61,588 nucleotides of DNA from Patescibacteria group bacterium. GTDB lineage: Bacteria; Patescibacteriota; UBA1384; 2-12-FULL-50-11. A program made the translations under genes and the position numbers. The first letter of the stretch is position 1. Every line of letters begins with the position of its first letter. Below, in pieces: positions 22,069 to 42,738 of the stretch. The DNA lies in assembly GCA_038058635.1 (NCBI GenBank), contig JBBUAP010000004.1, positions 97,196-158,783 of the forward strand, read 5' to 3'. The notes beneath the pieces were generated by a model, which had not been told where the DNA came from, searched no databases, and saw only the letters and a program-made list of their open reading frames with translations.

Positions 22069-22734
22069 ATGGACCCGAGTCTAAGAGCAACTGTTCAATC
22101 TTTGCGCGCCGAAGGTTTAACCTTTGCCGAGATTAGTAATCGTTTAGGTACTACACTGTCAAAAAGTACCTTGTCCACCTGGTGTCGGGCTATCACACTT
22201 TCGGACAAGCAAGTTGAAAGGATAGAAGCAATAAAAAAGGATAAGTTAGCCCTAAGTCGTACTAAAGCCTTAATAGTCAATAAAATTGCTAGAGAGAAAT
22301 ACTTAACCGAAATAAGTGCGAGATACAGCTACTTACGACCTCAACTAGAGGGTAGTCTAGACTCCTCTTTGATGGTGCTAGCGACTCTCTACTTGACCGA
22401 AGGAAGCAAGCAGTCCGGTAAGCTCACTTTTGGGAATTCAGACCTCCGAATTATAAAATTATTTCTTAAGCTCTTAAGGATATGCTTTAAGATTGATGAA
22501 AGTAAATTCAGATGTACTGTCCAGAGACGAGCCGATCAGAATGATGAAAATTTATTAAGATATTGGTCTCAAGTTACAGGCATTCCCTCTAAGCAGTTCT
22601 ATGAATCTCGAGTTGACCCTAGAAGTGTAGGTAAACACACTCTCAAAGGGGAATACATGGGCGTCTGTCGTATAGATTATTTCTCGGGATACATTTATAA
22701 TGAATTGCGAGTGATCGCGTCATTGATCACGTAG
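22069..22734 (+). CDS. HTH plus LAGLIDADG-like (homing-endonuclease-like) protein
   Basis: N-terminal HTH (LRAEGLTFAEISNRLGTTLSKSTLSTW). LATLYLTEGSK ... is a LAGLIDADG-type motif. The gene abuts tRNA-Ala(GGC). Confidence 0.4.
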   Translation: MDPSLRATVQSLRAEGLTFAEISNRLGTTLSKSTLSTWCRAITLSDKQVERIEAIKKDKLALSRTKALIVNKIAREKYLTEISARYSYLRPQLEGSLDSSLMVLATLYLTEGSKQSGKLTFGNSDLRIIKLFLKLLRICFKIDESKFRCTVQRRADQNDENLLRYWSQVTGIPSKQFYESRVDPRSVGKHTLKGEYMGVCRIDYFSGYIYNELRVIASLIT

Positions 22735-24339
22735 TTTGGGCCCATAGCTCAGTTGGTAGAGCGTCTGGCTGGCAGTCAGAATGTCGTCGGTTCGAATCCG
22801 TCTGGGTCCACCAAACGTGGCATCTTTTCCATTCAGAGGCAAACAACAGGAGTAACAGTCGTGTATTTTGGTGTTCGAATAGCCGGGGTACGCCCATGGC
22901 ACTCCGATAGGAAATATCGAACACAAGAGCACTCTCTTCTGTTCTAGCGACGACTCTTTATAAGTTTCAGCGAGATCCTCGAACTTGGATTTAATAAAGT
23001 TCGCGACTCGCTCGAGGCTATATTTATCGAGCACGGAATCGCTCTGAGCGATCTTGATAAAGGCGATTTTTTCCTCAAGCCGTCTGTTTTGCTCTTTAAA
23101 TACATCATCGGTGTAGATACCGGCCAGATTCTTCTCAATCAGCGCCTGGCGTAGCTCGTAGAGCTTCTTCAGTTCGACCTCAGCTTCTTCACGCTGTTTC
23201 AGTAAGATTGCCGCCCTACCCTTATAAGTTCGACGGATAAAGGCAATTAGCAATTCAATGGCCTTTGGCCTGAGAGAGATTTCTTTGAGAAAATTTATCA
23301 TCAGTTCATCCATATCCTCCATCTTTACCGATGAACCCCTCCCCTTTTTGCAACGTTTGGGACAGAAGTAGTAGCCGAAGCGTCGGTATTTGCCCTTACT
23401 AAACCCACCGGTAAAGGATCGACCACAGATACCACATTTAATAATCCTTCTAAGCGGAAAATTAGGGTTGTTGGGACTCTTTTTAGCTAGCTGTACCGCC
23501 TTACTAGTATTGCGGCCGGTTACTACAGACTGAACACGATAGAAGAGCTCTTCGGTAATCATCGGCACGTGCTGGCCTTTGACCTCTTCGTTATAGGCCG
23601 CCGAGACGATAAAACCGGCGTAGAACTTGTTTTTGAACATCCGTGACATCGTCTGGTTACTAATTAGAGAGACTTTGCCATGATTTCTCTCCCGAACTCC
23701 CTGCTTATTGAGAATTTCGGCCATCTCTCGCAGAGTCGTCGTGCCAGTGCCCATTCGCTCCCAAGCGGCTTTGATCAGATCCCAGTTTTCCGGATCTTTG
23801 GTGCCGTAGCCGCTCTGATTAACATAGCCGAGCGGTACCGGGCCATTTCGTAATCCACATAGGAATCGAGCCTTCATGCCGTTTCTGGTGCGTTCAGAGC
23901 GGATATCGTTATCCATCTGAGCAAAGCCAGCTAGCATTGTTTCGACAAACCTTTCGGTTGGGCTGTTGCCGGTTGGTTCAGAAGCCGAGATGAGGCGGAT
24001 CTCACACTCACTCAACTTTTTCCGAATCGATAAGTAATCCGAAGTCTGGCGGGAGATTCGATCAAGCCGATAAACAATCACCGCGTCAATAATCTTTTTA
24101 TTCTTACGGCAGTATTCGAGCATTCGAATTAGTTCCGGCCGATTCACCGTTTTAGCCGAACGACCCTCTTCCCGGAATATCTCAACGACTTCGTAACCCC
24201 GTTTCTCCGCTTCCTTGTGGCAGATATCCTTCTGGGTATCCAACGAATAATTCTCGACCTGTTCTTCCGTTGAAACTCGCAGGTATACTACCGCTTTCTC
24301 GACTCTCTTCGCCATCAAATCAACGATCTTGTTATCCAT
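22720..24339 (-). CDS. Large serine recombinase (integrase)
   Basis: N-terminal resolvase domain (VVYLRVSTEEQ ... VYRLDRISR), recombinase domain, Zn ribbon (CGICGRSF ... YYFCPKRC) and coiled coil. AGGAGG precedes ATG 24339. The last ~31 codons are antisense to the tRNA-Ala gene. Confidence 0.85.
   Translation of the reverse strand: MDNKIVDLMAKRVEKAVVYLRVSTEEQVENYSLDTQKDICHKEAEKRGYEVVEIFREEGRSAKTVNRPELIRMLEYCRKNKKIIDAVIVYRLDRISRQTSDYLSIRKKLSECEIRLISASEPTGNSPTERFVETMLAGFAQMDNDIRSERTRNGMKARFLCGLRNGPVPLGYVNQSGYGTKDPENWDLIKAAWERMGTGTTTLREMAEILNKQGVRERNHGKVSLISNQTMSRMFKNKFYAGFIVSAAYNEEVKGQHVPMITEELFYRVQSVVTGRNTSKAVQLAKKSPNNPNFPLRRIIKCGICGRSFTGGFSKGKYRRFGYYFCPKRCKKGRGSSVKMEDMDELMINFLKEISLRPKAIELLIAFIRRTYKGRAAILLKQREEAEVELKKLYELRQALIEKNLAGIYTDDVFKEQNRRLEEKIAFIKIAQSDSVLDKYSLERVANFIKSKFEDLAETYKESSLEQKRVLLCSIFPIGVPWAYPGYSNTKIHDCYSCCLPLNGKDATFGGPRRIRTDDILTASQTLYQLSYGPKLRDQ
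22737..22812 (+). tRNA. tRNA-Ala(GGC), CCA encoded
   Basis: Hand-folded: acceptor gggccca/tgggtcc with G3:U70, D arm gctc-agttggta-gagc, anticodon arm tctgg-ctGGCag-tcaga. The T arm gtcgg-ttcgaat-ccgtc has one U:U mismatch. Confidence 0.85.
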
Positions 24340-24341
24340 CA

Positions 24342-24671
24342 CTATCCTCCTTTCAATAATTCTTTTAATGTTAGGCCGTCAAAGGCCTGTTTTTCATAAA
24401 CGTCAAACCAGGAATCAACCAGGCACTGCAGTTCAGTAATAAATATCTCCACCTCCTCATCCGAGAGGTTAGTTGCTACTTCTTGCAAGATCATCCGGGA
24501 TTTCTGGACTTTTGTCTCTTCAGCGGGGGTTGGAAATATTGAGCCTAGCGTCGTATCTAAGGTTTTGTAAGTGGCCGGGCTAATTAGTGGCCGATCAAGC
24601 TCCATCACTGCCGTTCGACCCGAAGTCGGCAGTGAGTCAGCTCGCCTAATTGTTCCTTCGATTATGGTCAT
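24342..24671 (-). CDS. Hypothetical protein upstream of the recombinase (possible accessory/RDF)
   Basis: 109-aa ORF whose stop abuts the recombinase start. No family recognised. Confidence 0.4.
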   Translation of the reverse strand: MTIIEGTIRRADSLPTSGRTAVMELDRPLISPATYKTLDTTLGSIFPTPAEETKVQKSRMILQEVATNLSDEEVEIFITELQCLVDSWFDVYEKQAFDGLTLKELLKGG

Positions 24672-24796: not shown

Positions 24797-24964
24797 ATGC
24801 TGTATAAAAAGTGTCCGAAATGCCGGGGAACAATGATTGGCGTTAAGGAGAAACCTCCTTTTTACCGCTGTTCCCAGTGTAATTATGAGGCCAAAACCAA
24901 AGAAGACATCGACCAACTCGAAACGTATAAAAATAGCCAGATCCCTCGTTCTACTAACCTTTAG
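24797..24964 (+). CDS. Possible 55-aa Zn-ribbon protein (speculative)
   Basis: My own translation is MLYKKCPKCRGTMIGVKEKPPFYRCSQCNYEAK..., with two CxxC pairs. It is below the ORF-track cutoff and converges on and overlaps the RT stop by 11 nt. Confidence 0.3.
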   Translation: MLYKKCPKCRGTMIGVKEKPPFYRCSQCNYEAKTKEDIDQLETYKNSQIPRSTNL

Positions 24965-25904
24965 AAGCGGAAATTAGCTCGCTGGCCACTTTCTTGCTCC
25001 GAACATGCCCGAGATAGCCAAGGAACGACGGCAAACTCTTTTCGTTTCGTCCCGGGTCGGTTCTCGCCTGCCGCAGAAGGATACGCTTAATCCTTTGCAC
25101 CGTTCTAACTCGCGGGACGCTGTGGTGCGGTCGGGCAACATAGCCAACAAAATCCAGGCCCCAACTTAATTTCCGCAAGGTGACTTTATTGGGATGAACA
25201 TTCAGGGCAAGACGCTCCCGCAAAAACCGATTGATTTCGACAAAGTAGCCCATTAGTTCTTCCGGGTTTTGACCAAGCAAAATAAAATCGTCTGCATAGC
25301 GCAAGTAATGTGGGGCATTTAATTTATGCTTAACAAACTTATCGAACCGATCCATATAAACATTGGCAAAGAGCTGGCTCGTTAAATTACCAAGCGGCAT
25401 TCCTTTGCCCGGGAGAACGGCAAAGCTGTCGATAATCTGACTGAGCAGGCGAAACATCCGTTTGTCGCCAACTCGCTCCCTCAACATCGTTTTAAGAATC
25501 TGATGATCGACACTGTCGAAAAACTTCCTAATGTCACATTTAAGCGCCCAGCACGGTTGGGTGTAGTTTTTACTGACTTGTCGGCCGTGGTCAGCTAGCT
25601 CGCGAAAAGCTCGGTGAGTGCCCATGTTTTTACGGCAAGCGTACGAATCAGAAATGAATGTCGCGTCATAAGGCGGGTAAAGGACTTGGTAGATCGCTTG
25701 ATGGACAAGCCGATCGCGGACGCTAGCTTTGCTGATGATCCGGAGTTTCGGATCGGTGATTTGAAACTGCTGATAACCGCCTGGTCGGTATGCATCCTGT
25801 ATCAAATCTCGGTGGAGAGCGAAGATATTATCTTCCAGATTGAATTCAAAAAGCTGAATATCTTCCTTCCGACGCTTACCCTTGCGGTAATTCCCCCACG
25901 CCAA
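24954..25904 (-). CDS. DGR reverse transcriptase
   Basis: RT motifs including RYADDFILL, and the DGR-typical PLGNLTSQLFANVYM (SQ motif). The compact 316-aa size and the adjacent TR/VR pair also fit. Confidence 0.9.
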   Translation of the reverse strand: MAWGNYRKGKRRKEDIQLFEFNLEDNIFALHRDLIQDAYRPGGYQQFQITDPKLRIISKASVRDRLVHQAIYQVLYPPYDATFISDSYACRKNMGTHRAFRELADHGRQVSKNYTQPCWALKCDIRKFFDSVDHQILKTMLRERVGDKRMFRLLSQIIDSFAVLPGKGMPLGNLTSQLFANVYMDRFDKFVKHKLNAPHYLRYADDFILLGQNPEELMGYFVEINRFLRERLALNVHPNKVTLRKLSWGLDFVGYVARPHHSVPRVRTVQRIKRILLRQARTDPGRNEKSLPSFLGYLGHVRSKKVASELISASKG

Positions 25905-25965
25905 AATGAGATTGTCGATTGAGACGATCTGGTCAAAGTCACCCTCATGCAGTAATAATCTTTTT

Positions 25966-26400
25966 ATGGAGAACTTTCCTCAACAACTCCTGGGTGGAGT
26001 ACCAATTACCCAGAAAACTTATGATTTTTACAGAACCCTTCATCTTCAGGTGCAGCGTTTTCCGAAGATTGAGCGTTATGCTACCGGTCAAACTCTCCAG
26101 AACGAGACCCTAGGCTTGCTAAAGTGTCTGCTGGCCGCCTGCCAAACTTCCGGGTCAGTTAAGGCCGGCCACCTAAGTGACGCCAGTCTCCAGCTCGAAA
26201 CGGTCAAGGTTTTTGTCCGGTTGGCATATGACGTTCGCGCCCTAGATCGACGGGCTTACATTCTCTTGCAAGAATTCTTGCAAGAGATCGGCCGGATGCT
26301 CGGCGGCTGGATCAAGTCGACCCAAAAGTCAAACTCCGAACAGTCAAGTACGAGCAAGCAAAATCTCAGCGACAAAGCTGAGACTGAGCTTATTGAATGA
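25966..26400 (+). CDS. Avd-like four-helix-bundle accessory protein, on the opposite strand to RT/TR/VR
   Basis: KTYDFYRTLHLQVQRFPKIERYATGQTL ... LQEIGRMLGGWIKS is the typical Avd / 23S-IVS four-helix-bundle pattern. I prefer the start at MENFPQQ. Confidence 0.75.
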   Translation: MENFPQQLLGGVPITQKTYDFYRTLHLQVQRFPKIERYATGQTLQNETLGLLKCLLAACQTSGSVKAGHLSDASLQLETVKVFVRLAYDVRALDRRAYILLQEFLQEIGRMLGGWIKSTQKSNSEQSSTSKQNLSDKAETELIE

Positions 26401-26504
26401 TCTGCATGCGCAAATCTTCCCTGCCAACAGATAGTTGGCTGTGAATCATCTGCCCCTGCAGCTGTTCTTCGCCAGCATAGCTGACTATGAATAGTGTGAG
26501 ATTT

Positions 26505-26619
26505 CGGGAGAAGGAGACGCCCAGGTTGTCGTTCGAGTTGTCCGGGTTATCGTTGTCGACGTTCAGGCCGTTGGAGTTGAAGTTGCCAGCATAGACCAAG
26601 TTGCCGTCAGATGAACGCT
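26505..26619 (-). repeat. DGR template repeat (TR)
   Basis: 115 bp colinear with the VR. All 14 differences are A (coding-strand sense) in TR against non-A in VR. Confidence 0.9.
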
Positions 26620-26948
26620 CCTTTGCGTTTCCCCAATCAAATCAACGGCACGATGCACTAAGAAGTAGAGACCGTGCCTGTATAACAATGTGGCGGCAGG
26701 CAAAGCTTCTTTGCCACCCGCGCTAGGAAAACGCAAGCAATCTATTAACTACCCCACACGCTCTAGGTGTGAGGGGAGTGTCAGTTCACTCCATTCGGCC
26801 GGAGTGCGTCCGTAAACGCACTCTCAATGGCAGTTGGATTTTAGCAGTTTTTAGGCGCACTGAATAGGGGTAGGGAGGCATTTTCCAAAATTTCGCTCGA
26901 GTCGGCTTCGCCGACACCCCAGTAAACCAAGGATCCAAGGGCCAAGGT

Positions 26949-29066
26949 TCAAGATTTTTGATTGCGGGAGAAGGAGACGCCCAGGTCGTCGCTCGAGATG
27001 TCCGGGTAAGCGTAGTCGACGCTCAGGCCGCGGGAGAGGAAGTAGCCAGCATAGACCAAGAGGCCGTCAGATGAACGCTGATTAGTCCAAGAGTACATCC
27101 CTTCCATTAAACGAGCTCCCTTAGGATGACTGGCTGATATGGCCCTGTTTGCTTCGAAGAATACCGTCGTGTCGTACATCGCCTCAACAGGGGTCTGGCG
27201 GAATAATTGATTAATTTTTAGTTCCGAGAGTTGTTTGGCGGCTTCCTGCCAGTCGGATCCCATTAGTTTCTCAATTGCCCCGCGTTTTGCGTCGAACTCC
27301 TTAATCGCCTCTGTGTACATTCCTCGCAATAGCGGATCGGAAATATCTGGCCCGACTTGAGTGTCGACGTACTTCGCTAACTCGCCAGTTTGCTGAAGGT
27401 AGTTTTTGCTAGTCGAATCCGGAATGACTTCTCGGCTGGTTAAGGCCCAGCCAGAACGGACGGCTTCTTTTTTGAAGAAATCTTCGTCTTTATACCAATC
27501 CCTGTCATAAAGAACCTTACCATCTTTGTCGCGATCAAATTTTGGCTGAAGAATTTGATCCAGTCGTTCCATTGTTAGCGGGTCGCCTCTTTCGTCTTTA
27601 CCTTGACGATAAATAAGAAACTGTCCGAGCTCCTTAGCGCGTTCCAGCTCTTGCTTGGAGAATGGAATTGGCTCGACTTTTTCTAGATCGATTTTAACCC
27701 CCAGTATTTCCGCAACACGATTAGGAGCGATAACCTGATATTCACCCAGAATTCGCTGTGCTTCAGTAACCTGTTCGAGCAGTTCGCCGGTCAAAGGGGT
27801 TGCTTCAACTCTTGATGCCGTCAAGAGTTCTTCCGCGGTTACGGTAGTTTCTCCGAGCCCTTCTCGCTCCGCCCCGCGGCGTTTGGTTTCTTGCTGTGGA
27901 ACAAAAGCGACGTGGCGAATCAGCTCCTCTAGTTTTTGGCGATCGGCGGTGCCCTCCAGCTTGTTGGAGTAATAATAGCGCAACGCTTTTTGGAAGGTCT
28001 CGTTAATATCGCCGTTGTAAAATTGTTGAACGAACTCGGTCACTCGTCGCGGTTCCATCCGGTCATCGTAGCTAAATTTCTGCGGCTGATCGGCGGCTAC
28101 GGAGCGATTGGCAACCATTTCTTTGGCCGCTCGATGAAACTCTTTGTATTTGCCGAGCACTTCTTCGATACCGGGTATTTCTTTGAGCTGTTCGCGTGGC
28201 AGGGCCTGATCTCTGGTGGTTAGGTAGGACTCTTGCGGCACGGCATTGGTATCGGTTTCTTTGGCTAAGCCGAAGAGTACGTCGGTCGAGTAGGAGAAGG
28301 TTTGTTCTGGCAGATTCGTCACCTCTTTCTGGTAATTCCAGCGTCGAAGTTGAGCCGGATCAAGCGGTTCGCGGCCGATAAAACCCTTGCCCGGCGGATT
28401 CGTTAACCCAACAATCTTTGTTTGGTCTTTATTGACCCCGACCGTCTCCGAAGCATCCTCCGAAAGAACAATTTCGCCGTTTCGCTCCAGGGCATCAAGC
28501 ACCTCGTGAAGACGAATGGTGATGTTCGGTGCGGCCGAGTTGTACTCGTCAAGGACGATAATTTTTCTCTTGCCCTCCTCAATCCGTAGGCCTGATGTAA
28601 CTTTACCGTCGGCAAAAATATACTCCGGATCATCAATCCGTTCTCGGTGAGGATTGGGAATATAGCGACCCATCAGATCCTCTACATCGCTGGCGCCGTT
28701 TAGGTTGACATAGTGAACTTCCCAGCCCAGTTCCGCGGCCATTTTACGAACGGTTGTCGTTTTGCCGATACTGGTTCCGCCCTCTAAAAGAATCGGTTCA
28801 CTTTGCAAGAAACTGACGGCAAACTTTTTTTGCAACTCCAACGAAAAGCGGTCTTGGATGTACTTCTCTCCGGCGTAACTTTCTCGCTTCGGTACGAATT
28901 GACTCTCAACATGAGCTTTTTCTAGTCGGACACCCATGTAGGTAACTGAATTCTCATCTTCAACGACCGGCAGGTTTGGTTGTTGTTCGACTTGCTCAAC
29001 TACGGCATCCTGGACGCCGGTTTCTTCAGCCCCAACTTGATTTTCCGGTGATCCTGGTTCAGGCAT
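26949..29066 (-). CDS. DGR target: MoxR-like (AAA_5) ATPase fused to a C-terminal CLec/FGE-like variable domain
   Basis: Walker A LLEGGTSIGKTTT, Walker B IIVLDEYN, and LDPAQLRRW. The C-terminus YSWTNQ...GVSFSR carries the VR. Confidence 0.85.
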   Translation of the reverse strand: MPEPGSPENQVGAEETGVQDAVVEQVEQQPNLPVVEDENSVTYMGVRLEKAHVESQFVPKRESYAGEKYIQDRFSLELQKKFAVSFLQSEPILLEGGTSIGKTTTVRKMAAELGWEVHYVNLNGASDVEDLMGRYIPNPHRERIDDPEYIFADGKVTSGLRIEEGKRKIIVLDEYNSAAPNITIRLHEVLDALERNGEIVLSEDASETVGVNKDQTKIVGLTNPPGKGFIGREPLDPAQLRRWNYQKEVTNLPEQTFSYSTDVLFGLAKETDTNAVPQESYLTTRDQALPREQLKEIPGIEEVLGKYKEFHRAAKEMVANRSVAADQPQKFSYDDRMEPRRVTEFVQQFYNGDINETFQKALRYYYSNKLEGTADRQKLEELIRHVAFVPQQETKRRGAEREGLGETTVTAEELLTASRVEATPLTGELLEQVTEAQRILGEYQVIAPNRVAEILGVKIDLEKVEPIPFSKQELERAKELGQFLIYRQGKDERGDPLTMERLDQILQPKFDRDKDGKVLYDRDWYKDEDFFKKEAVRSGWALTSREVIPDSTSKNYLQQTGELAKYVDTQVGPDISDPLLRGMYTEAIKEFDAKRGAIEKLMGSDWQEAAKQLSELKINQLFRQTPVEAMYDTTVFFEANRAISASHPKGARLMEGMYSWTNQRSSDGLLVYAGYFLSRGLSVDYAYPDISSDDLGVSFSRNQKS
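26965..27079 (-). repeat. DGR variable repeat (VR), the last ~38 codons of the 705-aa target
   Basis: See TR. VR encodes YAGYFLSRGLSVDYAYPDISSDDLGVSFSR, whereas TR encodes YAGNFNSNGLNVDNDNPDNSNDNLGVSFSR. Confidence 0.9.
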
Positions 29067-29500: not shown

Positions 29501-31768
29501 TCAGAATTGGTCATATCCTTCAATGACCTCCCGGATTAACTCGGCTAACTGATCAGCCATTTCTTTAGCATTGACATTAGCCAGACTGTTTGGGTAGTAG
29601 TGAGCGACATGCTCGGTATTCGGGCCGATCCCTAAACCGATTAGCTTTTGGTTGGTTTCTTCCTGAATGCGTCTGACGGCTACCCCCAGTTCATACTCTG
29701 ACCCTGAATGTTCGTGAGAAGGCTCCGGATTACCATCAGAAAGCGGAATTAGAAACTTTTCGGTTGCCCCTTGTTGGGCTAAGCGCTGTGAGGCTTGCCC
29801 CAACGCCCAACCGTCGTCGTTATAGGCCGCTCGGTCGCTAGACACCTCTTGTAGCATACCGCCCATATGATCACGCACTTCATCGGACATGGCCTCGTGA
29901 AAACCCTTGAAGACGTGAATCCGGTCATTAAAGCCGAGGATTTCGTTATCAATTGAGAGTCGATTGAGTACCTCTGATAGGACAATGGCAGCCTTGAAGG
30001 TTTCGTTAATCTTCTGGCCGCGCATTGAACCCGACAGATCGACAAGTAAGCTAATAGCGTAGTCTTTCTCTCGGGGTGTTTCTCTTCGCTCCCAAGCATG
30101 GCTTTCCATGGCCGGTACGTCCTTGGCTTTCTCCTGAATGCGGCGTTTGATATCAATGTGTTTACCAGATCGAAAACCGCTCTCCCAGTTGTGGGCTCGC
30201 CTGGCCACAAAGATTGCTCGCAGATCGTCCTCAAGTTTATCAATTGTCTCTAACACTTCGCGGCGCTTTTCCTCGTAGATATTAGCGTCTTTGTTGATTG
30301 CTTCCTGGGCAAGATCGTGAAACTTGTCGACTTCCTCCTGTTGTTCTGGCGGCAGTGGTGGTCGATCCGTTTGCTCAGCCAATTTTTTACCGACTGTTTT
30401 GGTTCCCGCCGGTTTCCCTTCGTGTTGTTCGGGATCTTGATTGAGTTTGCCCCGCAGCTCTTCTTTGATAGTTTCTTCGAATTGGCGCAACATCTCTTCC
30501 GCTCGCTGTTGCAAATCTTGCTTAACTTCTTCCGGTAGGCTGTCGATATACTCTCGAATTTTTTGTTTGGTTTCTTCGCTAAGTGATTCCAAGTCAACTG
30601 GACCACTAGGTGGTTCCTGGGTTTCCTGTTCGTCGCCTTCAGTGGGTTTGCCTGGCTGATTGTTGTTCTGTTCTTGTTTTTCCTTGGCCTGATCTATTGC
30701 TTGTTGTAAGGCACCTTGCAGCTCTTGCTGTTGCTCGGGTGTTAGACGATCTTTTAATTCTTGTGGCAGTTGGGGTTGTCCCTGCCCGGACTCACCGCCT
30801 TCAACGAACTGCTTTTGTATGTCCCTCATTTGCTGCTCCATTTTCTCATCCTGAATGTCCTCGTCGACGAGTTTTTTGAATTCCGGCCAGATCTCATCTC
30901 GGTTTATTTCGTAGAATGTTTGGGCGTACTTCTTGATCAACTGTTCGCTTTTGTCGGCCTCCTGTCGGGAGGGGTAGCGCCACCAGGCGTCTTGAGCGGA
31001 AGGCAAGGTTTTAGCGACGACTTCTTTGACGTCGTCGGGCAGATCCTCACTAACTTCACCGAACCCCCCGCTTGACTCCTTCAGCCACTGTTTGATGTAC
31101 TCGAAACTGGCTTGCATAAAGCGTGGTTGATGACCGAGCTTATCTTTGGCTTCTACTTTGAGGACTTTTTCTTTTTCTAGCTCAATGTCGTAGGCGACTT
31201 TCATCTGCTCACGAAACTTCGGATAGTTTTCGGCAACGAAATTGTTGACGCGCGGGTCTTCTATAGCGTTCATCATTGCCCCAAATCCTGGCTGAGCCCA
31301 GGTTTCCAAGGGGATAGACTCCATTCTCGAAATTCGCCTGTGACCACCCTCGTGGGAGATGATACAGCGCAGATAATCCATTGGCTGTTCGAGCAAATCT
31401 TTCGGATCGACCCGGATGATGTTGTCCTTAAAATCCCAATGCCAACCAGTACCGGGTTCATTGAGCCGAACGGGAATCTTAAAGTCCTTGCCGATAAAGT
31501 AAGCTAGCGATGAAAGAAGCTTTTGTTTGGTCTCTATCTCTTTTTGTTGTTTCGGGTTGAATTGGGCGAGAACTTCTTTATCCCTGCCCTGCCGGAGCAT
31601 TTGGAGGGTAGTTTCGGGAGTTTGGCGACTCACGAGTGGTTCTGGTTGAGCTTCCGGTCGTTGAAGCTCGGCCACTTCGGGCTGGGCTCCTTGAGAGGGT
31701 AAATTTAACTCTTGCGCTTCGGTGGGCGCTATTGACCCGTCAGTAAATGTCCCCTCATTCCGTTCCAT
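29501..31768 (-). CDS. vWA-domain protein with an N-terminal HExxH metallopeptidase-like region and an acidic coiled-coil linker
   Basis: IISHEGGHRR ... EDPRVNNF near the N-terminus, an E/Q/K-rich centre, and a C-terminal MIDAS LLVDLSGSMRG ... NDDG ... LSDGNPEP. Confidence 0.8.
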   Translation of the reverse strand: MERNEGTFTDGSIAPTEAQELNLPSQGAQPEVAELQRPEAQPEPLVSRQTPETTLQMLRQGRDKEVLAQFNPKQQKEIETKQKLLSSLAYFIGKDFKIPVRLNEPGTGWHWDFKDNIIRVDPKDLLEQPMDYLRCIISHEGGHRRISRMESIPLETWAQPGFGAMMNAIEDPRVNNFVAENYPKFREQMKVAYDIELEKEKVLKVEAKDKLGHQPRFMQASFEYIKQWLKESSGGFGEVSEDLPDDVKEVVAKTLPSAQDAWWRYPSRQEADKSEQLIKKYAQTFYEINRDEIWPEFKKLVDEDIQDEKMEQQMRDIQKQFVEGGESGQGQPQLPQELKDRLTPEQQQELQGALQQAIDQAKEKQEQNNNQPGKPTEGDEQETQEPPSGPVDLESLSEETKQKIREYIDSLPEEVKQDLQQRAEEMLRQFEETIKEELRGKLNQDPEQHEGKPAGTKTVGKKLAEQTDRPPLPPEQQEEVDKFHDLAQEAINKDANIYEEKRREVLETIDKLEDDLRAIFVARRAHNWESGFRSGKHIDIKRRIQEKAKDVPAMESHAWERRETPREKDYAISLLVDLSGSMRGQKINETFKAAIVLSEVLNRLSIDNEILGFNDRIHVFKGFHEAMSDEVRDHMGGMLQEVSSDRAAYNDDGWALGQASQRLAQQGATEKFLIPLSDGNPEPSHEHSGSEYELGVAVRRIQEETNQKLIGLGIGPNTEHVAHYYPNSLANVNAKEMADQLAELIREVIEGYDQF

Positions 31769-31800: not shown

Positions 31801-32007
31801 CTAGCGTGACGTATATTTTTCCAGTTTTCCTAACGCTTTGTCTCGGTACTTACTAACGGTCTGGGTGGAAATGTCGAATTTCTGAGCAATTTCATTCACT
31901 GTGTAGTGCCGATCACCTAAACCGTAATACATAACGATAATTATCTGTTCGCTTGGAGTGAGGATAGAAATAAGCTTGCCGTCGTGATCGGATAATAACG
32001 GTTTCAT
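31801..32007 (-). CDS. Sigma-70 region-4-like HTH mini-protein
   Basis: IIIVMYYGLGDRHYTVNEIAQKFDISTQTVSKYRDKALGKLEK. Confidence 0.6.
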   Translation of the reverse strand: MKPLLSDHDGKLISILTPSEQIIIVMYYGLGDRHYTVNEIAQKFDISTQTVSKYRDKALGKLEKYTSR

Positions 32008-32010
32008 TGT

Positions 32011-33363
32011 TTACTGCGGTTTCGTTATATCTTTAATATTGGATTCGTTCATTCTCCACAAGCCGCCTTCTCGTATTAATGTCCAGGTGCCTTCAAACTC
32101 TCCAGTTTTCCATTCCCAGGTTTCTATATTACGCTCAGTGGCGTAAAAGTGAGCGTTAATGACGTTTGGTTTATCGCTTAACTCAACCGATACCAGGCGA
32201 ATGAAAATGGTTTGTTCCAGGCCTTTGGACCAGTTATCGTAAGGCAGTCTGGCTTTACGGCTTGAGGAGTAAAAGTTGTTGTAGGCGCCTAGAATATCCC
32301 CTCCTCCGAGGGTGGTGTAGTACTTAGCAACGACTTCAGCTTGTTCGGATGGGTAACTGAGCTTGATCTCTTGCGGAGTTGCACCCTCGGCCGTTTTAAT
32401 CATCGTCTGGATGCGATCATTGAGCTGGGAGTACTCAATGGCAAAACCGGCGTTTTCTTGCCCCTGCAGTGTCTGGGTGTTCATACCGACGACTTTGCCG
32501 CAGATATCGACCAGTGGACCACCTGAATTGCCCGGAATAATAGAGGCATCAGTTTGGATGAAACTACGATCGTCGTAGTCGTCTAGTGTCAGAGCCGAAA
32601 CAATGCCTTTGGAGATCGTTAGATTCCGACCAAGCGGATAACCGATGGCATAGACTTCGTCGATCGGAATAACTGGTCTTGTGGCTCCGGTAAGAAAGGG
32701 CATGTCGCTATAGTTTGTTATTTTGATCAGAGCGATATCACGCAGAGAGTCGGTAGCAACGACCCTAGCACCGGAGGCAAGGTCTTGATTGCCAAGATAA
32801 ATTTTGGTGATCGGGTTGTGATCAACGACATGATTATTGGTGACAATAAAATTCTTCTCAACAAAGAAACCACTACCAACACCTTCCTCGCCCTCAATTA
32901 GTACGACTGAATCAGAGGCGGTTTGAACATCTGCTTGGCCGCATTTTAGTTCGTAGTCGAGTTTGCCGGTACGATAACCGTTCCAGTACCAAAGAAGAGC
33001 TACGTTAAGAATGAGCGACGCCAAAATGCTAAGTCGCACAACCCATTTACCAGTAAATAATCCGCCTCTCCATAGCCGCTTTATGATCCTAGCGGCTCGG
33101 CGATATGTCTCAGAGCTAGCAATAGTTTTTACGAATCGATTTTCGGTTAGTCTGCCGGAATGGTGCATCGCGTCCTGTCGTTGTGCGTGAATGAAACCTC
33201 TGTAGGCCAGAAATAAAACGAGAATAACTGCACCAATAGTCCCGATAATACTTGGAGCAAATAGTATGATCGCAGCTATTACCAAGATCCATAATAGTCC
33301 GCGTAGGAATCTACGGAAATTAGCCGACATAGGTTTAGTTAGCTTGCTTACAAATTTCTTCAT
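32011..33363 (-). CDS. Membrane-anchored trypsin-like (S1) serine protease with an extra C-terminal domain
   Basis: N-terminal TM helices. The triad context is VTNNHVV / DIALIKI / GNSGGPLVD. Confidence 0.8.
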   Translation of the reverse strand: MKKFVSKLTKPMSANFRRFLRGLLWILVIAAIILFAPSIIGTIGAVILVLFLAYRGFIHAQRQDAMHHSGRLTENRFVKTIASSETYRRAARIIKRLWRGGLFTGKWVVRLSILASLILNVALLWYWNGYRTGKLDYELKCGQADVQTASDSVVLIEGEEGVGSGFFVEKNFIVTNNHVVDHNPITKIYLGNQDLASGARVVATDSLRDIALIKITNYSDMPFLTGATRPVIPIDEVYAIGYPLGRNLTISKGIVSALTLDDYDDRSFIQTDASIIPGNSGGPLVDICGKVVGMNTQTLQGQENAGFAIEYSQLNDRIQTMIKTAEGATPQEIKLSYPSEQAEVVAKYYTTLGGGDILGAYNNFYSSSRKARLPYDNWSKGLEQTIFIRLVSVELSDKPNVINAHFYATERNIETWEWKTGEFEGTWTLIREGGLWRMNESNIKDITKPQ

Positions 33364-35629: not shown

Positions 35630-38458
35630 CTATACCCCCTCGATAAACGTTTCTATGAAAGTATTAAACTTGGTCATCAGCCGCTTTACGACTGACTCCC
35701 GCTCAAGAATTTTTGGTTGAGTTGTTAGCGTCCCAACCAAATCGTTGCCACGTGGTTTGCGGCCGCTATACAAATAGTTATCAATTAAGCCCTGCAACTT
35801 TTCGGTCATGAGCCCCTCTTCGTTACACATCCGTTCAAATGCCTTGGTCTTTTCGTCACTCCAAAACTCTTCGAATTTAGTCTCCACTTCTTCCGAATCA
35901 GTAATCTTGGGAATGGTTTGCTTAATAAACTTCTCAATCAATTCCTTTTTACTACGTAATCTGTCATCGGCCGACATCACATTGAAAATATTGTTCAGAA
36001 TAGACTTTTTAGCATCTTCGGTGGCGTCAATAAGCCGTGCCAACAGTCGAATAATATAATCGACATTGATCTCATCTCGTCTTACTAGCTCCAGCTCAAA
36101 ATCCACATCATCCAAGATCGAGACTTTCTCTTTTTCGTGTTCGCTTCGAACTTTATCGTAAATGTCTAGATACTTACTGCGGAAGTCGACAAATGCTTGG
36201 GCCGAGATTGTAGTATCTTCGATTTTAAAATCGGTGAAGGTGATTAAGATGTTTCTCAGTCTCAATAGCTCCCGGAAATTGGTCACAAATTTTAGTTCTT
36301 GTTCTTCACCAACTAACAGATCAACGTCGGCCGGTGTTGGTGTCAGCTCACGAAGTTGCGCAATAGCTTCATTAAATTTCTCCACGTATTTCTCGTACGG
36401 CTCCATAAAGATTATTTCTTGGGCGTCTTTGTTACTAAACAGTGCGATCGCGTCGTCGGTTGCTTTCTTCAGATTGCGAAACACCACAATATTGCCTTGC
36501 GATTTACGCTCGTCGAGGATCCGATTGGTTCGCGAATACGCCTGCAGTAAGCCGTGATAACGCAAGCTCTTATCCACATACATTGTATTTAGCGTTTTGC
36601 TATCAAAGCCGGTCAAAAACATATTAACCACTAACAGAATATCTACTTGTCGTTTTCTAACCTTATCGGCCACGTCCCTGTAATAGTTGTAGAAACTGCC
36701 GCTATCCTTGGTAGTAAAGTTTGTTCCGAACTGTTCGTTGTAGTCAGCGATATAACTCTCCAGCCTGTCTCTTGAGTGTTGGTTGAGTTTACTGAACAAG
36801 CTCAACTGGATGTCCTCATCTAGCAGCCCGTTAGCGTATTTATCTTCTTCGTTGGCGCCGTAGCTAAATATCGTAGCGATCCTTAGCTTGCTCTCACTCC
36901 CAACTTGCTTGGCTTTAAAAATTTCGTAGTACTTTGTTAATATGTCCACACTTCCGACCGCAAAAATTGCGTTGAACTCCCGTGAATGGGTCTTGCGATC
37001 GTGATTAGCTAAAATATACTCGACAATCTTCTCCAACCTTTTCGGCGACTCCATTAGTTCTTTGATGTCAATCGCCTCCACTTCGATATCAACCTCGTTG
37101 GTAGTTTCCTTCTGGCGATACCGACCAACGTACTCAACCGAAAACTTCAACACATTTTCGTCATTGATAGCGTCGGTAATTACATACTTATGCAGACACT
37201 CACCAAACAAGTCGTGAGTGGTTCGTCGACCCAAAGCGTTACCGCTGGCATTTTCGGCAAATATTGGTGTACCGGTAAAGCCAAAAAGCTGATGGTTGGT
37301 AAAGAACTCAACAATTCGCTTATGGATCTCACCAAACTGACTGCGATGACATTCGTCAAAAATAAAGACAACTTTTTGATTACGGTGTTTATCCATCTTC
37401 AACAAATGCCGTTCGTTAGTAATGGCGTTGTTGAGCTTCTGGATAGTGGTAACGATTAGCTTGCTGTCTGGGTTACCAAACTGTTTTACCAATTGTCGGG
37501 TGTTATCTGTTTGGTCAACGCAATCTTCCTCAAAATTATTGAATTCGCGGATGGTTTGGGTATCTAAGTCGTTGCGGTCAACCACAAATACAACTTTGTA
37601 GATTTCCGGCAAGTCCACCAATATCTGGCTGGCCTTAAACGAAGTCAGTGTCTTTCCGCTACCGGTAGTGTGCCAGATGTAGCTGCCTTTAGTACTATTT
37701 TTAACTCGGTCAATTATCGCCTCAACGGCGTAGTACTGATACGGCCGCAGAATCATTAGTGTTTTGGTCTCGGCCAGAACGGTGTAGTTAGCAATCATCT
37801 TGGAAATGTGGCAGCGCTCCAAGAATGCTTCAGAGAACTTCGCTAAATCAGTAATTTTATTATTTTCTTTGTCGGCCCAGAACGAAGTGAATTTGAACGA
37901 TTGCCGGTGGTTATTGGAGTAGTATTTGGTATTAACACCGTTAGAAATTACAAAAATTTGGATGTATTGAAACAGTCCGTAGCTGGCGTCGTAACTATGG
38001 CGTTGGTAGCGGTTGGTCTGATTGAACGCTTCTTTGAGTTCCAGCCCACGGCGTTTTAACTCGATCTGTACCAATGGCAAGCCGTTAATTAGAATCGTCA
38101 CATCATAGCGGTTCTTGAAACTACCCTCATTTGAAACCTGGTTAGTAACCTGGAATTCGTTCTGACACCACTCGCGGCTATTAAAGAATTCAACATAATA
38201 ATTCGTGCCGTCATCACGGATCAGTCGCATTGTGTCGCGCAAGGTTTTAGCTTTATCAAAAACATTGCCCTTGGCGAGGTGGTTTAGGATTTTCTGAAAT
38301 TCCCCTTCGCTGAAAGCTGTCTCGTTATGTTTCTCGAGCTGGAATTTCAAGTTCGCTATCAGTTCTTTCTCGTCAGCCACAACCACCCGCTCATACTTCA
38401 TTTTTTGAAGCTGGGCGATGAGATTATTCTCTAAAGTTTGTTCGGATTGGATTTTCAT
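35630..38458 (-). CDS. hsdR: Type I restriction enzyme R subunit
   Basis: N-terminal nuclease region plus SF2 helicase motifs (HTTGSGKT, FDECHRSQ) and an HsdR C-terminal domain. Confidence 0.9.
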   Translation of the reverse strand: MKIQSEQTLENNLIAQLQKMKYERVVVADEKELIANLKFQLEKHNETAFSEGEFQKILNHLAKGNVFDKAKTLRDTMRLIRDDGTNYYVEFFNSREWCQNEFQVTNQVSNEGSFKNRYDVTILINGLPLVQIELKRRGLELKEAFNQTNRYQRHSYDASYGLFQYIQIFVISNGVNTKYYSNNHRQSFKFTSFWADKENNKITDLAKFSEAFLERCHISKMIANYTVLAETKTLMILRPYQYYAVEAIIDRVKNSTKGSYIWHTTGSGKTLTSFKASQILVDLPEIYKVVFVVDRNDLDTQTIREFNNFEEDCVDQTDNTRQLVKQFGNPDSKLIVTTIQKLNNAITNERHLLKMDKHRNQKVVFIFDECHRSQFGEIHKRIVEFFTNHQLFGFTGTPIFAENASGNALGRRTTHDLFGECLHKYVITDAINDENVLKFSVEYVGRYRQKETTNEVDIEVEAIDIKELMESPKRLEKIVEYILANHDRKTHSREFNAIFAVGSVDILTKYYEIFKAKQVGSESKLRIATIFSYGANEEDKYANGLLDEDIQLSLFSKLNQHSRDRLESYIADYNEQFGTNFTTKDSGSFYNYYRDVADKVRKRQVDILLVVNMFLTGFDSKTLNTMYVDKSLRYHGLLQAYSRTNRILDERKSQGNIVVFRNLKKATDDAIALFSNKDAQEIIFMEPYEKYVEKFNEAIAQLRELTPTPADVDLLVGEEQELKFVTNFRELLRLRNILITFTDFKIEDTTISAQAFVDFRSKYLDIYDKVRSEHEKEKVSILDDVDFELELVRRDEINVDYIIRLLARLIDATEDAKKSILNNIFNVMSADDRLRSKKELIEKFIKQTIPKITDSEEVETKFEEFWSDEKTKAFERMCNEEGLMTEKLQGLIDNYLYSGRKPRGNDLVGTLTTQPKILERESVVKRLMTKFNTFIETFIEGV

Positions 38459-40116
38459 ATGACTTCGTAATTGTCTTTGCCGATTGAATTGATGAAACAG
38501 GATGTTGGCTTGTCCTTGGTGTTTATCAGGTAAAGGCGTTTCTTTGTTCGTGTCAGCGCGACCAGCATCTGGTAAATTTCGCTCTCGTCCGGAGCGGAAG
38601 TAGTAGGGAGCTTCCCCTGGTCGAATCCTATTAAAAATACGACATCTGCCCCAAGCCCTTTGGATAAAAGTATACTCGTAACTGCGATCTCTAGATTCGC
38701 TAACGGACGTGGGAGGTGGTTAGTCTCTTCTCTTAACTGATTGGTTAGTATTTCCCTATAGTCCAACCTACTGCTGGAGATTAACCCTTCAAGCGAAGCT
38801 ATCGAGCTGTTAGCAATTTTAGTTCTCTCAGATTTAGATTTTTTAGTTAAACCGTTATGTGTTGTGGCAATTTTTTCTGACGTTTTTTTGAAATCCTCTG
38901 GGATAGAATTGATAAAGTTTTGCTTCTCATCTAATGATATCAATATGAGACTTTTTCGAGTTTCCTCGTCCAAGCTCTCTATCATCAATCGCCAAGCCAA
39001 TGTACTCAAAGGACTTTTCTTGAGCAGTTTAAGTCCCTCGATAATATTTGTCTTTAGCTTATAAACGTCATCTGTGAGTTTAGGATTATCGACATGTTTA
39101 AATCCTTTATATCTAAGCTGTTCTGCGATCACGGGGAGTAGATACTTGCACGTCCTAGCTTCGCCAATTACCAATACGGACTTAATCTTCTGACGCTCAA
39201 GAAGCTCGCTCAATTGATGAATAATCTTATTTGCAATGTCCGCAGGAACAACATTTTGCAAAAGAATGATACTGGGGTTCGCCTCGTTATCTTCTTTTTT
39301 CCCGGGAGTGTAGCACAAATATTCTTTTTTTATTCTTTCGTTGCCCAAGTTATTCAGTCCATATGCGTTTGCAATGCGGTGGAATGCGTTAATAATCACA
39401 TCTGTGCAACGAGAACAGAATCTGAGCGTAGTACTTAAATACTCTTCACCCGTAGCCTTATATTTTTCCCGAATAAACTTTGAAAACGAACCCTTGAAGT
39501 CGTAGAGCGCTTGGTCGTCATCTCCTACGATTAATATATTATTCTTTGTTGCTAGCAAGTCGATGAACTTGTCTTCAGTCTCATTCAGGTCTTGATACTC
39601 ATCAACTAAAATTAGATCATAGTCCGACGGAATCTTTTCTGGGAACTTTTCACCAAGCTTCAAAGCGTAGTGAATCGCATCCTTGTCTCCGATTGCCTTG
39701 TAGTAATTGCTCCTCGCTAGATATTCCTTGCTGTCTATTGAAACGTCCCGTAATCCCTGTAACGAGAGGTCGTAAGCAATTACATCATAGATCTGAGGGA
39801 AATATATCCAGCCTTCGCCAAGGAGATCTATCACAAACTTACGTGCGAAGCTGTGTATTGTCCTGGTTTCAGCCAGACCCGCTAGGTCATCAGCAAGCTC
39901 ATCGCATAATTTTCCCATGAAGGTAAGCGCGAGGAACTTTGACTTTCCTTCTTTTTTCTCTTTCCGTATCACTCTTTCAAACAAAAAGCTTTTTCCTGTA
40001 CCGGGTCCAGCGACGACAACCCTTTTTTTATGAACTGAGTTAAGAACCTTAGAGAGATCGTTCTGCCTTTCGGTTTCATGGTCGATTGGCGTCGTCACTA
40101 GCGATTCCGTCGTCAT
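38455..40116 (-). CDS. UvrD/Rep-like SF1 helicase-family ATPase embedded between hsdS and hsdR
   Basis: VVVAGPGTGKS, ILVDEYQDLN, VGDDDQALYDFKG, VVFLIGF and LVALTRTKKRLYLI. ATGA-type 4-nt overlaps occur at both ends. Confidence 0.75.
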   Translation of the reverse strand: MTTESLVTTPIDHETERQNDLSKVLNSVHKKRVVVAGPGTGKSFLFERVIRKEKKEGKSKFLALTFMGKLCDELADDLAGLAETRTIHSFARKFVIDLLGEGWIYFPQIYDVIAYDLSLQGLRDVSIDSKEYLARSNYYKAIGDKDAIHYALKLGEKFPEKIPSDYDLILVDEYQDLNETEDKFIDLLATKNNILIVGDDDQALYDFKGSFSKFIREKYKATGEEYLSTTLRFCSRCTDVIINAFHRIANAYGLNNLGNERIKKEYLCYTPGKKEDNEANPSIILLQNVVPADIANKIIHQLSELLERQKIKSVLVIGEARTCKYLLPVIAEQLRYKGFKHVDNPKLTDDVYKLKTNIIEGLKLLKKSPLSTLAWRLMIESLDEETRKSLILISLDEKQNFINSIPEDFKKTSEKIATTHNGLTKKSKSERTKIANSSIASLEGLISSSRLDYREILTNQLREETNHLPRPLANLEIAVTSILLSKGLGADVVFLIGFDQGKLPTTSAPDESEIYQMLVALTRTKKRLYLINTKDKPTSCFINSIGKDNYEVI

Positions 40117-41901: not shown

Positions 41902-42738
41902 CTATGCCGAGCCCTTCCTAATCAACTCGTCCATCGTTTTATTTTGGGCGTTCGTGAAAGTTAACCATGCATTAACACTCCTGCCGGTCGCGAAACTACC
42001 AGCATGATTTGGGCTTCTGAAGGGGACATTTTCAGTTAATTCAACAGTCTCACCTAAATCTTTACCGTATTTTCGGAATACTTCTTCCCGCTCTGCTAAA
42101 GACTTCGGCCATTCCTTACCCCAACTGGGTGCGTAACTCTTATCTATAAGTGACCCAACCAGAATAACGAATTTATCACCACGAAATTGCGCTTTGATAT
42201 CTGACTTTTTCGCCACACAATACCAAATATCTTCAGCTTTATCCTGTTTGGTTGAAAAAATGCTATAGCCAAGTGATTCTGCAATAAGTGCCACATCATC
42301 AAGAATTCTCTGCAAGCTATGGGTCTTAAATTCGTGCACATTATTACGAGCAGGAACAGTTTTATTAAGTATTTCCATCGCTGCTGACCCCTTAGCTTTT
42401 TCAACCGCTAGCGATTCCAGATACTTAACATCGCTCTTCTCCAAGTGGTTGGCGTTAGAGACAATAGCTAGCGCAATATCCCATAAGCCGGTGAGTTTGT
42501 CGTGGGTTTTAATTCGGTCGTAGAAGTTCTCACTCTCGCCAATATAGAGCTGGTTGTCTCCGGAGTTTATAAGTAAATACAAAGCTGGCTGCCTAAGCTC
42601 GTTGCGCTCCGTAGCATTATTAAGTTTAATTCTGGGAATAACTACTCCCTTGATTTGGCTATCCGATAACTCGATGATTCTCAAGCCCTCAAGGGTTCCG
42701 TCTGGCAAGTATGTTTGGATTAAGCGTGGAGTATTCAT
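41902..42738 (-). CDS. GIY-YIG-like / DUF4357-type protein embedded between hsdM and hsdS
   Basis: LYLLINSGDNQLYIGESENFYDRIKTH is GIY-YIG-like. The C-terminal FRSPNHAGSFATGRSVNAWLTF is DUF4357-like. The gene starts 1 nt after the hsdM stop. Confidence 0.6.
   Translation of the reverse strand: MNTPRLIQTYLPDGTLEGLRIIELSDSQIKGVVIPRIKLNNATERNELRQPALYLLINSGDNQLYIGESENFYDRIKTHDKLTGLWDIALAIVSNANHLEKSDVKYLESLAVEKAKGSAAMEILNKTVPARNNVHEFKTHSLQRILDDVALIAESLGYSIFSTKQDKAEDIWYCVAKKSDIKAQFRGDKFVILVGSLIDKSYAPSWGKEWPKSLAEREEVFRKYGKDLGETVELTENVPFRSPNHAGSFATGRSVNAWLTFTNAQNKTMDELIRKGSA

Follow-up and report, generated by a model that had tools for sequence, protein, structure and literature searches.

Candidate phyla radiation (CPR; Patescibacteria) bacteria carry more diversity-generating retroelements (DGRs) per genome than do other groups, most of them having the architecture called B3. 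In B3 elements, TR-(avd)-RT, a template repeat (TR) is followed by avd on the reverse strand and then by the reverse transcriptase (RT) gene, and 90% of CPR DGRs are built in this way (PMC5758913). An AAA domain fused to a CLec (C-type lectin) domain is named as the commonest CPR target by Paul 2017, at least in the words with which Doré 2024 cites that work (PMC10907252). The DGR of Bordetella phage BPP-1 (mtd-VR, avd, TR, Sp, brt, where VR is the variable repeat) has a 140-nucleotide (nt) spacer 3′ of TR; Sp pairs with both TR flanks (bioRxiv 10.1101/2023.10.23.563531), and, for efficient homing, a GC hairpin having a GRNA loop must lie 4 to 34 nt after VR (PMC3240598). Here we analyzed a 61,588-nt stretch of the genome of a Patescibacteria group bacterium (contig JBBUAP010000004.1, positions 97,196 to 158,783), called the window below, in which positions 24954 to 29066 very probably constitute a complete DGR of the CPR type, with a target gene ending in VR, TR, avd on the opposite strand, and RT. 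The element type is already known and is the one most common among the DGRs of CPR bacteria, and the target class is known as well. The locus shares with the CPR B3 DGRs that have UVR4/Midasin AAA targets the gene order, the inverted avd, the single C-terminal VR on an AAA_5/Midasin-like ATPase, and the Patescibacteria hosts, which are also the hosts of all close relatives of this element; nothing essential differs. This closest known group is also said to be 'DGR clade 2' of Roux et al. In the literature searched (Paul 2017 lying outside it), we found no description of five features reported below: a structured RNA, the proposed scaffold, on the 5′ side of TR; arrays of YTTGR motifs after VR; an A/C difference that marks VR; the VWA and P142 partners of the target; and a location resembling an integrative and conjugative element (ICE).

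The TR (26505-26619) and the VR (26965-27079) both lie on the minus strand. A computed re-alignment reproduced the pair that the preliminary description of this locus had aligned by hand, two 115-nt repeats that are colinear and ungapped at an offset of 460. It returned the same 14 mismatches, all of them a T in TR on the plus strand, which is an A in the coding sense, and not one mismatch at a non-adenine position over the 115 nt; 14 of the 28 TR adenines are thus substituted. In the coding sense, the spectrum comprised six A-to-T, four A-to-C, and four A-to-G changes. The TR is composed of 28 A, 39 C, 25 G, and 23 T; were the mismatches random, all 14 would fall on adenines with a probability of (28/115)^14, or 2.6 × 10−9. 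The 21-nt segment at 26505-26525 and 26965-26985, which had been described as resembling an initiation of mutagenic homing (IMH) element, proved to be identical in both repeats, GC-rich, and devoid of adenine in the coding sense. A repeat search found a single 120-nt direct repeat (26500-26619 and 26960-27079; 88% identity, spacing of 460), in which the homology extends 5 nt beyond the 115-nt core, to 26500 and 26960, and includes a 15th difference, TR-A against VR-C, at 26504/26964. The A-free segment followed by this difference makes a candidate IMH/IMH* pair. An adenine-tolerant scan of both strands found no further VR-like copies or other targets of the TR in the window.

The VR spans codons 663 to 701 of a 705-codon target gene (26949-29066, minus strand) and so lies, as previously stated, at the end of this open reading frame (ORF); a DGR is expected to have its VR where the coding sequence of the target ends (3′ end) and its TR adenines in codon positions 1 and 2 (AAY codons). 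The TR encodes the peptide ...GNLVYAGNFNSNGLNVDNDNPDNSNDNLGVSFSR and the VR its counterpart ...GLLVYAGYFLSRGLSVDYAYPDISSDDLGVSFSR, and re-translation confirmed both peptide strings as given earlier. Ten AAC codons and six other A-containing codons are present in the TR, none of which can be turned into a stop by mutation of A. All 10 AAC codons are recoded in the VR, as is one of the six others (GAT to GCT). Among the VR residues earlier derived from TR Asn codons (Tyr, Leu, Arg, Ser, Ala, Ile, and Asp), the Ala comes in fact from this TR Asp codon. The possible repertoire amounts to 15^10 × 4^6, or about 10^15.4, proteins.

The RT gene (24954-25967, minus strand) encodes 337 amino acids (aa) if translated from the ATA codon at 25967-25965 and 316 aa if translated from the TTG codon at 25904. 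Both RT motifs noted before were located, YADD at 25287-25298 and LGNLTSQ at 25374-25394; the LGxxxSQ motif is reportedly typical of DGR RTs, whose clade is marked by [I/L/V]GxxxSQ in motif 4 together with YxDD. The protein matched Pfam RVT_1 (E value of 1.2 × 10−21), and its best PDB match was the 328-aa 'Reverse transcriptase' chain of 8ub7-8ube (E value of 3.4 × 10−46, 161 bits, RT residues 8 to 322), which from its sequence we take to be the BPP-1 bRT. The next-best PDB match was the group II intron RT 6ar1 (88.6 bits; E value of 4 × 10−24). The Avd-like gene that had been proposed beside the TR (25966-26400, plus strand; 144 aa) matched Pfam bAvd (PF22296) with 63.8 bits against a cut-off of 40 and scored 78.9 bits with NCBIfam DivGenRetAVD, just under the cut-off of 80. 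Read along the minus strand, the order is target gene with VR, 330 nt, TR, avd on the plus strand convergent with TR, and RT divergent from avd. With TR running from 26619 to 26505, avd on the plus strand, and RT running from 25967 to 24954, this is the B3 architecture of Wu 2018. The avd gene stands head to head with RT, its ATG overlapping the putative RT ATA start by 2 nt; one plus-strand promoter-like site, not above chance expectation, lies directly before this ATG (25930-25959). Set against the DGR of BPP-1, the locus is alike in RT homology, the presence of Avd, A-specific transfer from TR to VR, a GC-rich IMH-like end devoid of A, and a GC hairpin that follows VR, and unlike it in that avd is on the opposite strand, between TR and RT. 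Collectively, the RT, the bAvd match, the A-specific TR/VR pair, the IMH-like end, and the hairpin bore out the earlier claim of a complete DGR, with the caveats that RT has no canonical start before its conserved N terminus and that no evidence of present-day activity was obtained. A 55-aa zinc-ribbon protein (24797-24964, plus strand) overlaps the RT 3′ end by 11 nt and is kept only in the two closest relatives (L006 and L007) among the related loci introduced next.

A protein search returned more than 421 homologues of the target, of about 690 to 710 aa and 50 to 58% identity, and those that were named came mostly from Patescibacteria. A locus scan with one genome per species then yielded 78 related loci, almost all from Patescibacteria lineages, and an unbiased repeat search identified 53 TR/VR pairs in 38 of them. 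In these pairs, 853 of 908 mismatches fell on TR adenines. As determined by tblastn, a recurrent gene order linked a VWA gene, P142, the AAA target, in many cases another target that is a short paralogue, then avd on the opposite strand, and RT. The inverted position of avd recurred in nearly all related loci, and in two (L008 and L051) the avd-RT pair was inverted as one unit. An alignment of 119 target C termini revealed a conserved scaffold (W660, G668, V671, G674, G680, P688, and LGVSFSR) in which nine columns exceeded 3 bits of entropy (669, 672, 675, 682, 684, 687, 690, 692, and 694). Seven of the nine correspond to TR Asn (AAC) codons and two to other A-containing codons (672, TAT; 684, GAC); three other AAC columns (677, 679, and 685) had 2.3 to 2.8 bits. 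In L008, L010, L020, L022, L025, L031, L032, L038, L054, L072, L073, and L079, a second or third target is served by the same TR. Such extra targets are often short paralogues that lack the ATPase and consist of the C-terminal roughly 280 residues only; in the window there is just one target. In addition, L074, an AAA/VWA locus without a detected DGR, is flanked by long tandem arrays of a roughly 99-nt unit (positions 1-900 and 5061-5353).

Directly 5′ of the TR, we identified a conserved structured noncoding RNA of roughly 150 nt (26613-26776, minus strand), which we propose to be the RNA scaffold of the DGR. Conserved blocks were visible when the 150 to 180 nt upstream of 19 to 26 TRs were aligned. 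It contains a 12-bp helix, P2, between UUGCGUUUUCCU (26725-26736) and GGGGAAACGCAA (26623-26634), the latter ending about 4 nt before the TR. RNAalifold recovered P2 with 12 pairs, 9 of which showed compensatory changes; 96.5% of the cells were paired, against 49 to 55% with a slid partner, and the covariation score was 0.689, against 0.13 to 0.20 in controls, a value reached by none of 500 shuffles. The minimum free energy fold of the single sequence likewise forms P2. The fold of 26440-26960 as a whole had a z-score of only −1.18, and stability alone thus gives no support; the structure is supported because of covariation, not thermodynamic stability. Two hairpins (26647-26678 and 26693-26721) lie within P2, and between them lies a conserved unpaired block, CACAUUGUUAUACAGG (26677-26692), whose near-invariant adenines are candidate priming nucleotides; P2 is preceded by an anchor, AGAUUGCU (26736-26743), with the conserved sequence ACUGCU. 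A covariance model built from the alignment (R1) gave one match per locus, always directly 5′ of TR, for a total of 25 matches in 912 kb, including loci outside the seed; the match in the window covers 26613-26761 with 96.4 bits. No Rfam family corresponded to the scaffold, and a relaxed threshold over 26350-27000 gave chance matches only.

Immediately 5′ of the anchor, a stretch complementary to the 3′ flank of the cognate TR suggests a second duplex, P1. Its mean cognate duplex energy was −10.6 kcal/mol, compared with −6.66 ± 0.57 kcal/mol for permuted partners, and none of 20,000 permutations reached it. In the window, the 5′ strand of P1 would lie at about 26751-26759 and its 3′ strand at 26494-26502 (AUCUCACAC) within the TR 3′ flank (26494-26504), in which 26504 is the TR-A already mentioned. 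From these data we infer that the DGR RNA of this clade adopts the closed-loop topology of BPP-1 in a circularly permuted form, with the scaffold on the 5′ side. As in BPP-1, the TR flanks would be held in two duplexes with noncoding RNA; unlike in BPP-1, this RNA lies 5′ of the TR instead of in a spacer 3′ of it. The permuted topology fits the short gap between TR and the convergent avd, which often holds a bidirectional terminator-like hairpin and typically measures 25 to 60 nt to the start of the avd match in relatives and about 100 nt in the window.

Three features set the VR apart from the TR. After the terminal Arg codon, the TR reads CCG-A and the VR CCG-C in 27 of the 30 related pairs that have the TR-A there. 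The difference is synonymous, as CGN codons are four-fold degenerate, yet it is fixed, which would have a probability below 10−10 if outcomes were random and relatedness is ignored. By these comparative data, position 26504/26964 is a fixed marker, not a product of random mutagenesis, and behaves as an IMH/IMH* difference at the 3′ limit of transfer. The second feature is an array of four YTTGR motifs (CTTGA, ACCTTGG, CCCTTGG, and ATCCTTGG; 26927-26953, minus strand) that begins at the TGA stop of the target with a period of 7 to 8 nt, which is also the dominant spacing in relatives. Across the related loci, YTTGR occurred 3.26 times per 70 nt after VRs, 0.41 times after TRs, and 0.46 times in background or random windows. 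Every array of at least four motifs in 851 kb of related loci, like the single one in the window, was located 3′ of a target-gene end. Arrays also follow VRs of a different sequence class (the L040-L048 and L078 group) and, in multi-target loci, every VR but not the TRs. From L006 to L082, arrays of three to eight motifs (CTTGA, CTTGG, or TTTGA) were seen 3′ of each VR and were almost absent elsewhere. A 68-aa sigma70_r4 protein encoded nearby (31801-32007) was considered as a binder of these TTGA-containing arrays and rejected, as it has no homologue in the 78 related loci.

The third feature is a GC-rich hairpin, GTCGGC-GAA-GCCGAC (26901-26915, minus strand), 44 nt 3′ of the end of VR homology and a candidate target hairpin or cruciform. 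A GC-rich inverted repeat downstream of VR is present in about a third of DGRs. Among the relatives, such hairpins followed 26 of 53 VRs, against 9 of 39 TRs, most commonly with GAA, GTA, or GGA triloops. Phage DGRs are reported to have the hairpin 4 to 34 nt from VR, whereas here the distance is 44 nt, the loop is the 3-nt GAA, and the repeat array lies in between. Taken together, these data make it possible, and we propose it tentatively, that CPR B3 elements use a permuted DGR RNA whose 5′ scaffold clamps the TR flanks and that their VRs are marked by a YTTGR array, a GNA-loop hairpin, and a fixed IMH base.

The target itself consists of an N-terminal MoxR/Midasin-type AAA+ ATPase, a helical middle part, and the C-terminal VR domain. 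The N terminus belongs to the MoxR class, with a Pfam AAA_5 match of 46.5 bits (cut-off of 22), Walker A (GGTSIGKTT, 28755-28781) and Walker B (IIVLDEYN, 28539-28562) motifs, PDB sequence matches to midasin (E value of 3 × 10−28), NorQ, and, weakly, CobS, and an AlphaFold model (predicted local distance difference test [pLDDT] score of 82.8) whose best Foldseek matches were the MoxR ATPases CbbQ and NorQ (E value of about 10−11). No signal peptide or transmembrane segment was evident in the target by eye, no predictor having been run. Residues 425 to 705, modeled separately, gave a confident structure (pLDDT, 95.4; predicted template modeling score, 0.93) with no significant structural neighbor; nearly all top Foldseek PDB matches were formylglycine-generating enzymes (FGE), at E values of 0.4 to 2 over 60 to 90 columns only. 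FGE share the CLec-like fold used by DGR targets. Pfam at E values up to 10 gave no CLec match for 19 C-terminal domains, a PDB profile search gave none either (its best match being antibody heavy chains at an E value of 0.5, the chance level), and Foldseek found no match for the VR domain in BFVD. Wu et al. 2018 also left open the fold of the UVR4 class, whose targets match the Midasin AAA domain (PMC5758913).

Two conserved genes precede the target on the minus strand. P142 (29059-29487), a 142-aa protein without a match in Pfam, NCBIfam, or PADLOC, overlaps the target start by 8 nt; almost all 78 related loci have it at this same place, flanked by the VWA and AAA genes. The 755-aa VWA protein (29501-31768) carries a C-terminal CobT_C/VWA domain (Pfam CobT_C E value of 6.9 × 10−15) with the metal ion-dependent adhesion site (MIDAS) motif DLSGSM (30023-30040), and its N-terminal half, which contains an HExxH-like HEGGH motif (31340-31354, minus strand), had no Pfam match. 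The VWA gene lies upstream of the target also in related loci, and we presume the protein to be the partner of the AAA target. NorQ likewise works with a VWA protein, NorD. The locus resembles the NorQ/NorD, CbbQ/CbbO, and CobS/CobT pairs in that its AAA domain is structurally nearest CbbQ/NorQ, with weak CobS matches, and its partner has a CobT_C/VWA domain with MIDAS; those ATPases, however, lack the roughly 280-residue C-terminal extension with a hypervariable tip that is present here, and no metabolic client gene is found near this locus. It also resembles the MoxR-vWA 'ternary' conflict systems of cyanobacteria and Thiohalocapsa, in which a MoxR-class AAA+ ATPase and a VWA protein are accompanied by a DGR acting on a binding domain at a C terminus, and in which the targets likewise appear cytoplasmic (PMC7159879, PMC10907252). 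In those systems, CLec is on the VWA protein or a separate protein, RT belongs to clade 5, and the hosts are multicellular bacteria, whereas here the variable domain is fused to the ATPase and the hosts are CPR bacteria. Assignment to the ternary systems, which combine a MoxR ATPase, a vWA protein, and a VMAP protein with an effector, was rejected since, in spite of the ATPase and VWA protein, neither a VMAP protein nor a conserved effector turned up, no VMAP profile search having been made. A trypsin-like protease (32011-33363), tried as a conserved third component, had no match in related loci. Altogether, the genes look like a putative MoxR-VWA module with a variable ligand-binding tip; the cytoplasmic ATPase distinguishes this DGR from that of BPP-1, whose target is a tail fibre.

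Several observations weigh against a working DGR with the parts and roles described above. RT has no ATG, GTG, or TTG ahead of its conserved N-terminal extension (HEGDFDQIVSIDNL), and a simple sigma-70 promoter/terminator scan of 24800-27100 found no minus-strand promoter-like site near the TR. At least 10 contigs encode the exact target protein, and the two that were compared (L001 and L002, from two sequencing runs) were 100% identical to the window at the nucleotide level; runs with identical contigs include ERR3858118 and ERR3858133; the 90% protein cluster of the target has one member and no variants, and two scans of JGI metagenomes with VR-flank patterns found no copies of the locus. 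The register of P1 in the window is ambiguous and competes with a local hairpin (26752-26776), and the case for P1 comes from the permutation test, not from column-wise covariation. A CLec fold of the VR domain was not demonstrable from the FGE matches, and the roles assigned to the YTTGR array and the AAA-VWA module are putative ones. Part of this would be expected if the element were a DGR by descent that is now inactive, with a frozen VR and an RT that is improperly translated or an element that is unexpressed, which we regard as unlikely. The first canonical RT start, TTG 25904, is residue 22, lies within the conserved extension, and would remove about 21 conserved residues, among them HEGDFDQI; RT must thus start at the rare ATA codon or be N-terminally truncated. 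On the other side, the window, L006, and L007 all keep an open, conserved RT frame upstream of the TTG, and all three have an Ile codon (ATA in the window, ATT in L006 and L007) at the expected start with a conserved GAGGAAAG-like Shine-Dalgarno sequence (GAGGA-like) before it, and more distant relatives have an ATG at that site, abutting or overlapping the avd start, so that the translation signals of each gene lie inside the other. RT therefore probably starts at the ATA codon. The catalytic motifs, avd, TR, IMH-like end, hairpin, and RNA scaffold are likewise all intact. No VR heterogeneity at TR-A positions was seen in the consensus contigs, and the identity of the contigs, which break inside or near the TR as assemblies do at repeats, is weak evidence because consensus assemblies hide minority VR variants.

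An entirely different origin, in which the TR is a decayed duplicate of the target 3′ end and the RT comes from a group II intron, a retron, or a defence system, has next to no probability left. The best NCBIfam RT match is indeed a group II RT/maturase model (group_II_RT_mat), but at 140 bits it stays below its cut-off of 300, as does retron_St85_RT at 53 bits (cut-off of 235); the RT also matches many PADLOC DRT models at a generic RT level, all such RTs being mutually related. Decay would not place 14 of 14 differences on TR adenines (P of about 3 × 10−9) with the same bias in 38 related loci, bRT is by far the best solved match of an RT that carries LGxxxSQ and stands next to avd, and Rfam detected neither group II intron RNA nor retron RNA. 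Within the reach of sequence analysis, this origin is refuted. More weight, if still little, belongs to the view that the structured RNA and the YTTGR array do not belong to the DGR but are either elements of the target operon (3′ untranslated region, terminator, or regulatory) or a separate small RNA, and sit between VR and TR by chance. Both lie in the target 3′ untranslated region, the hairpin could act as a terminator, and their tie to reverse transcription or homing rests on sequence comparison. That view does not account for a covariance model that matches only directly 5′ of TRs, including L008 and L051, where avd-RT is inverted, and loci with intervening extra targets, nor for the close approach of P2 to the TR start and the complementarity between the 5′ side of the anchor and the cognate TR 3′ flank. 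Similarly, the arrays follow every VR of multi-target loci and VRs of another class, and never TRs. A complete CPR-type DGR with a proposed RNA scaffold and candidate VR marks is the reading that we retain, with the reservations stated for each part.

The DGR adjoins a large serine recombinase gene (22720-24342, minus strand; Pfam Resolvase, Recombinase, and Zn_ribbon_recom) whose ORF runs through a whole tRNA-Ala gene (22738-22813, plus strand), its last roughly 30 codons being the complement of the tRNA, a sign that the island integrated there. Ordinary chromosomal genes (ClpB, MreB, PGI, enolase, and iPGM) fill the left part of the window. Beyond the cassette, at about 32000-61000, lie genes for the trypsin-like protease, a DUF2779/Cas4-like nuclease, and an HD protein, as well as a type I restriction-modification system (HsdR, 35630-38458; HsdS, 40113-41291; HsdM, 42739-44295) that is interrupted by a UvrD-like helicase (38455-40116) and has a GIY-YIG/DUF4357 gene (41902-42738) between HsdS and HsdM. 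The island further encodes Fic, a Replic_Relax relaxase, a TraG/VirD4-like coupling protein, and a type IV secretion system pilin. A search of the window for att-type direct repeats of the tRNA-Ala region found none of at least 13 nt, and the far island boundary was not found. The recombinase at tRNA-Ala is likely the integrase end of an ICE-like island carrying the DGR. In L003 and L005, relaxase and coupling protein genes lie a few kilobases upstream of the cassette, and a serine recombinase follows RT also in L016, L024, L038, and L081, which points to the DGR cassette as cargo at the integrase end of such islands.

The sequences show the parts of the element, the A-specific history of its VR, and a cassette that is conserved together with its cis-elements, and a mechanism may be drawn from the established one of DGRs and BPP-1. 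A minus-strand RNA with scaffold and TR would be bound by an RT-Avd complex, with P2 just 5′ and P1 just 3′ of the TR making the TR a closed loop and presenting its ends to the enzyme. The RT would copy the TR with random misincorporation opposite template adenines, and the cDNA would replace the VR up to the A-free IMH-like segment, the VR being recognized as recipient by three features that the TR lacks, the fixed C, the YTTGR array, and the GC hairpin with its GNA loop. In this way, the C-terminal tip of a cytoplasmic ATPase could have 16 of its codons (10 AAC) recoded, giving about 10^15 proteins and no stops. The ATPase would work with the VWA protein and P142 as a MoxR-VWA remodeling or sensing module with a variable ligand-binding tip. 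Speculatively, the diversified tip lets the ATPase bind changing ligands inside the cell; such binding might be of use in defence or sensing, roles proposed for the MoxR-vWA DGR systems of other phyla, or might benefit the mobile island.

As a DGR alone, the element is one more member of a well-surveyed class and changes little; most of the value lies in the RNA scaffold seen across the clade and in the array that flanks the VR. For B3 elements, the BPP-1 model, in which a spacer RNA lies downstream of the TR, cannot apply as drawn, and the upstream scaffold offers a testable RNA model in its place. How DGR cDNA finds and replaces the VR is poorly understood, and an array of repeats that follows VRs alone offers a new candidate for a recognition element. 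The conservation of the ATPase with its VWA partner on conjugative-type islands suggests a programmable remodeling or sensing machine in very small genomes. If the scaffold and the VR marks are indeed functional and undescribed, they would define cDNA priming and target recognition in the most abundant cellular DGR clade.

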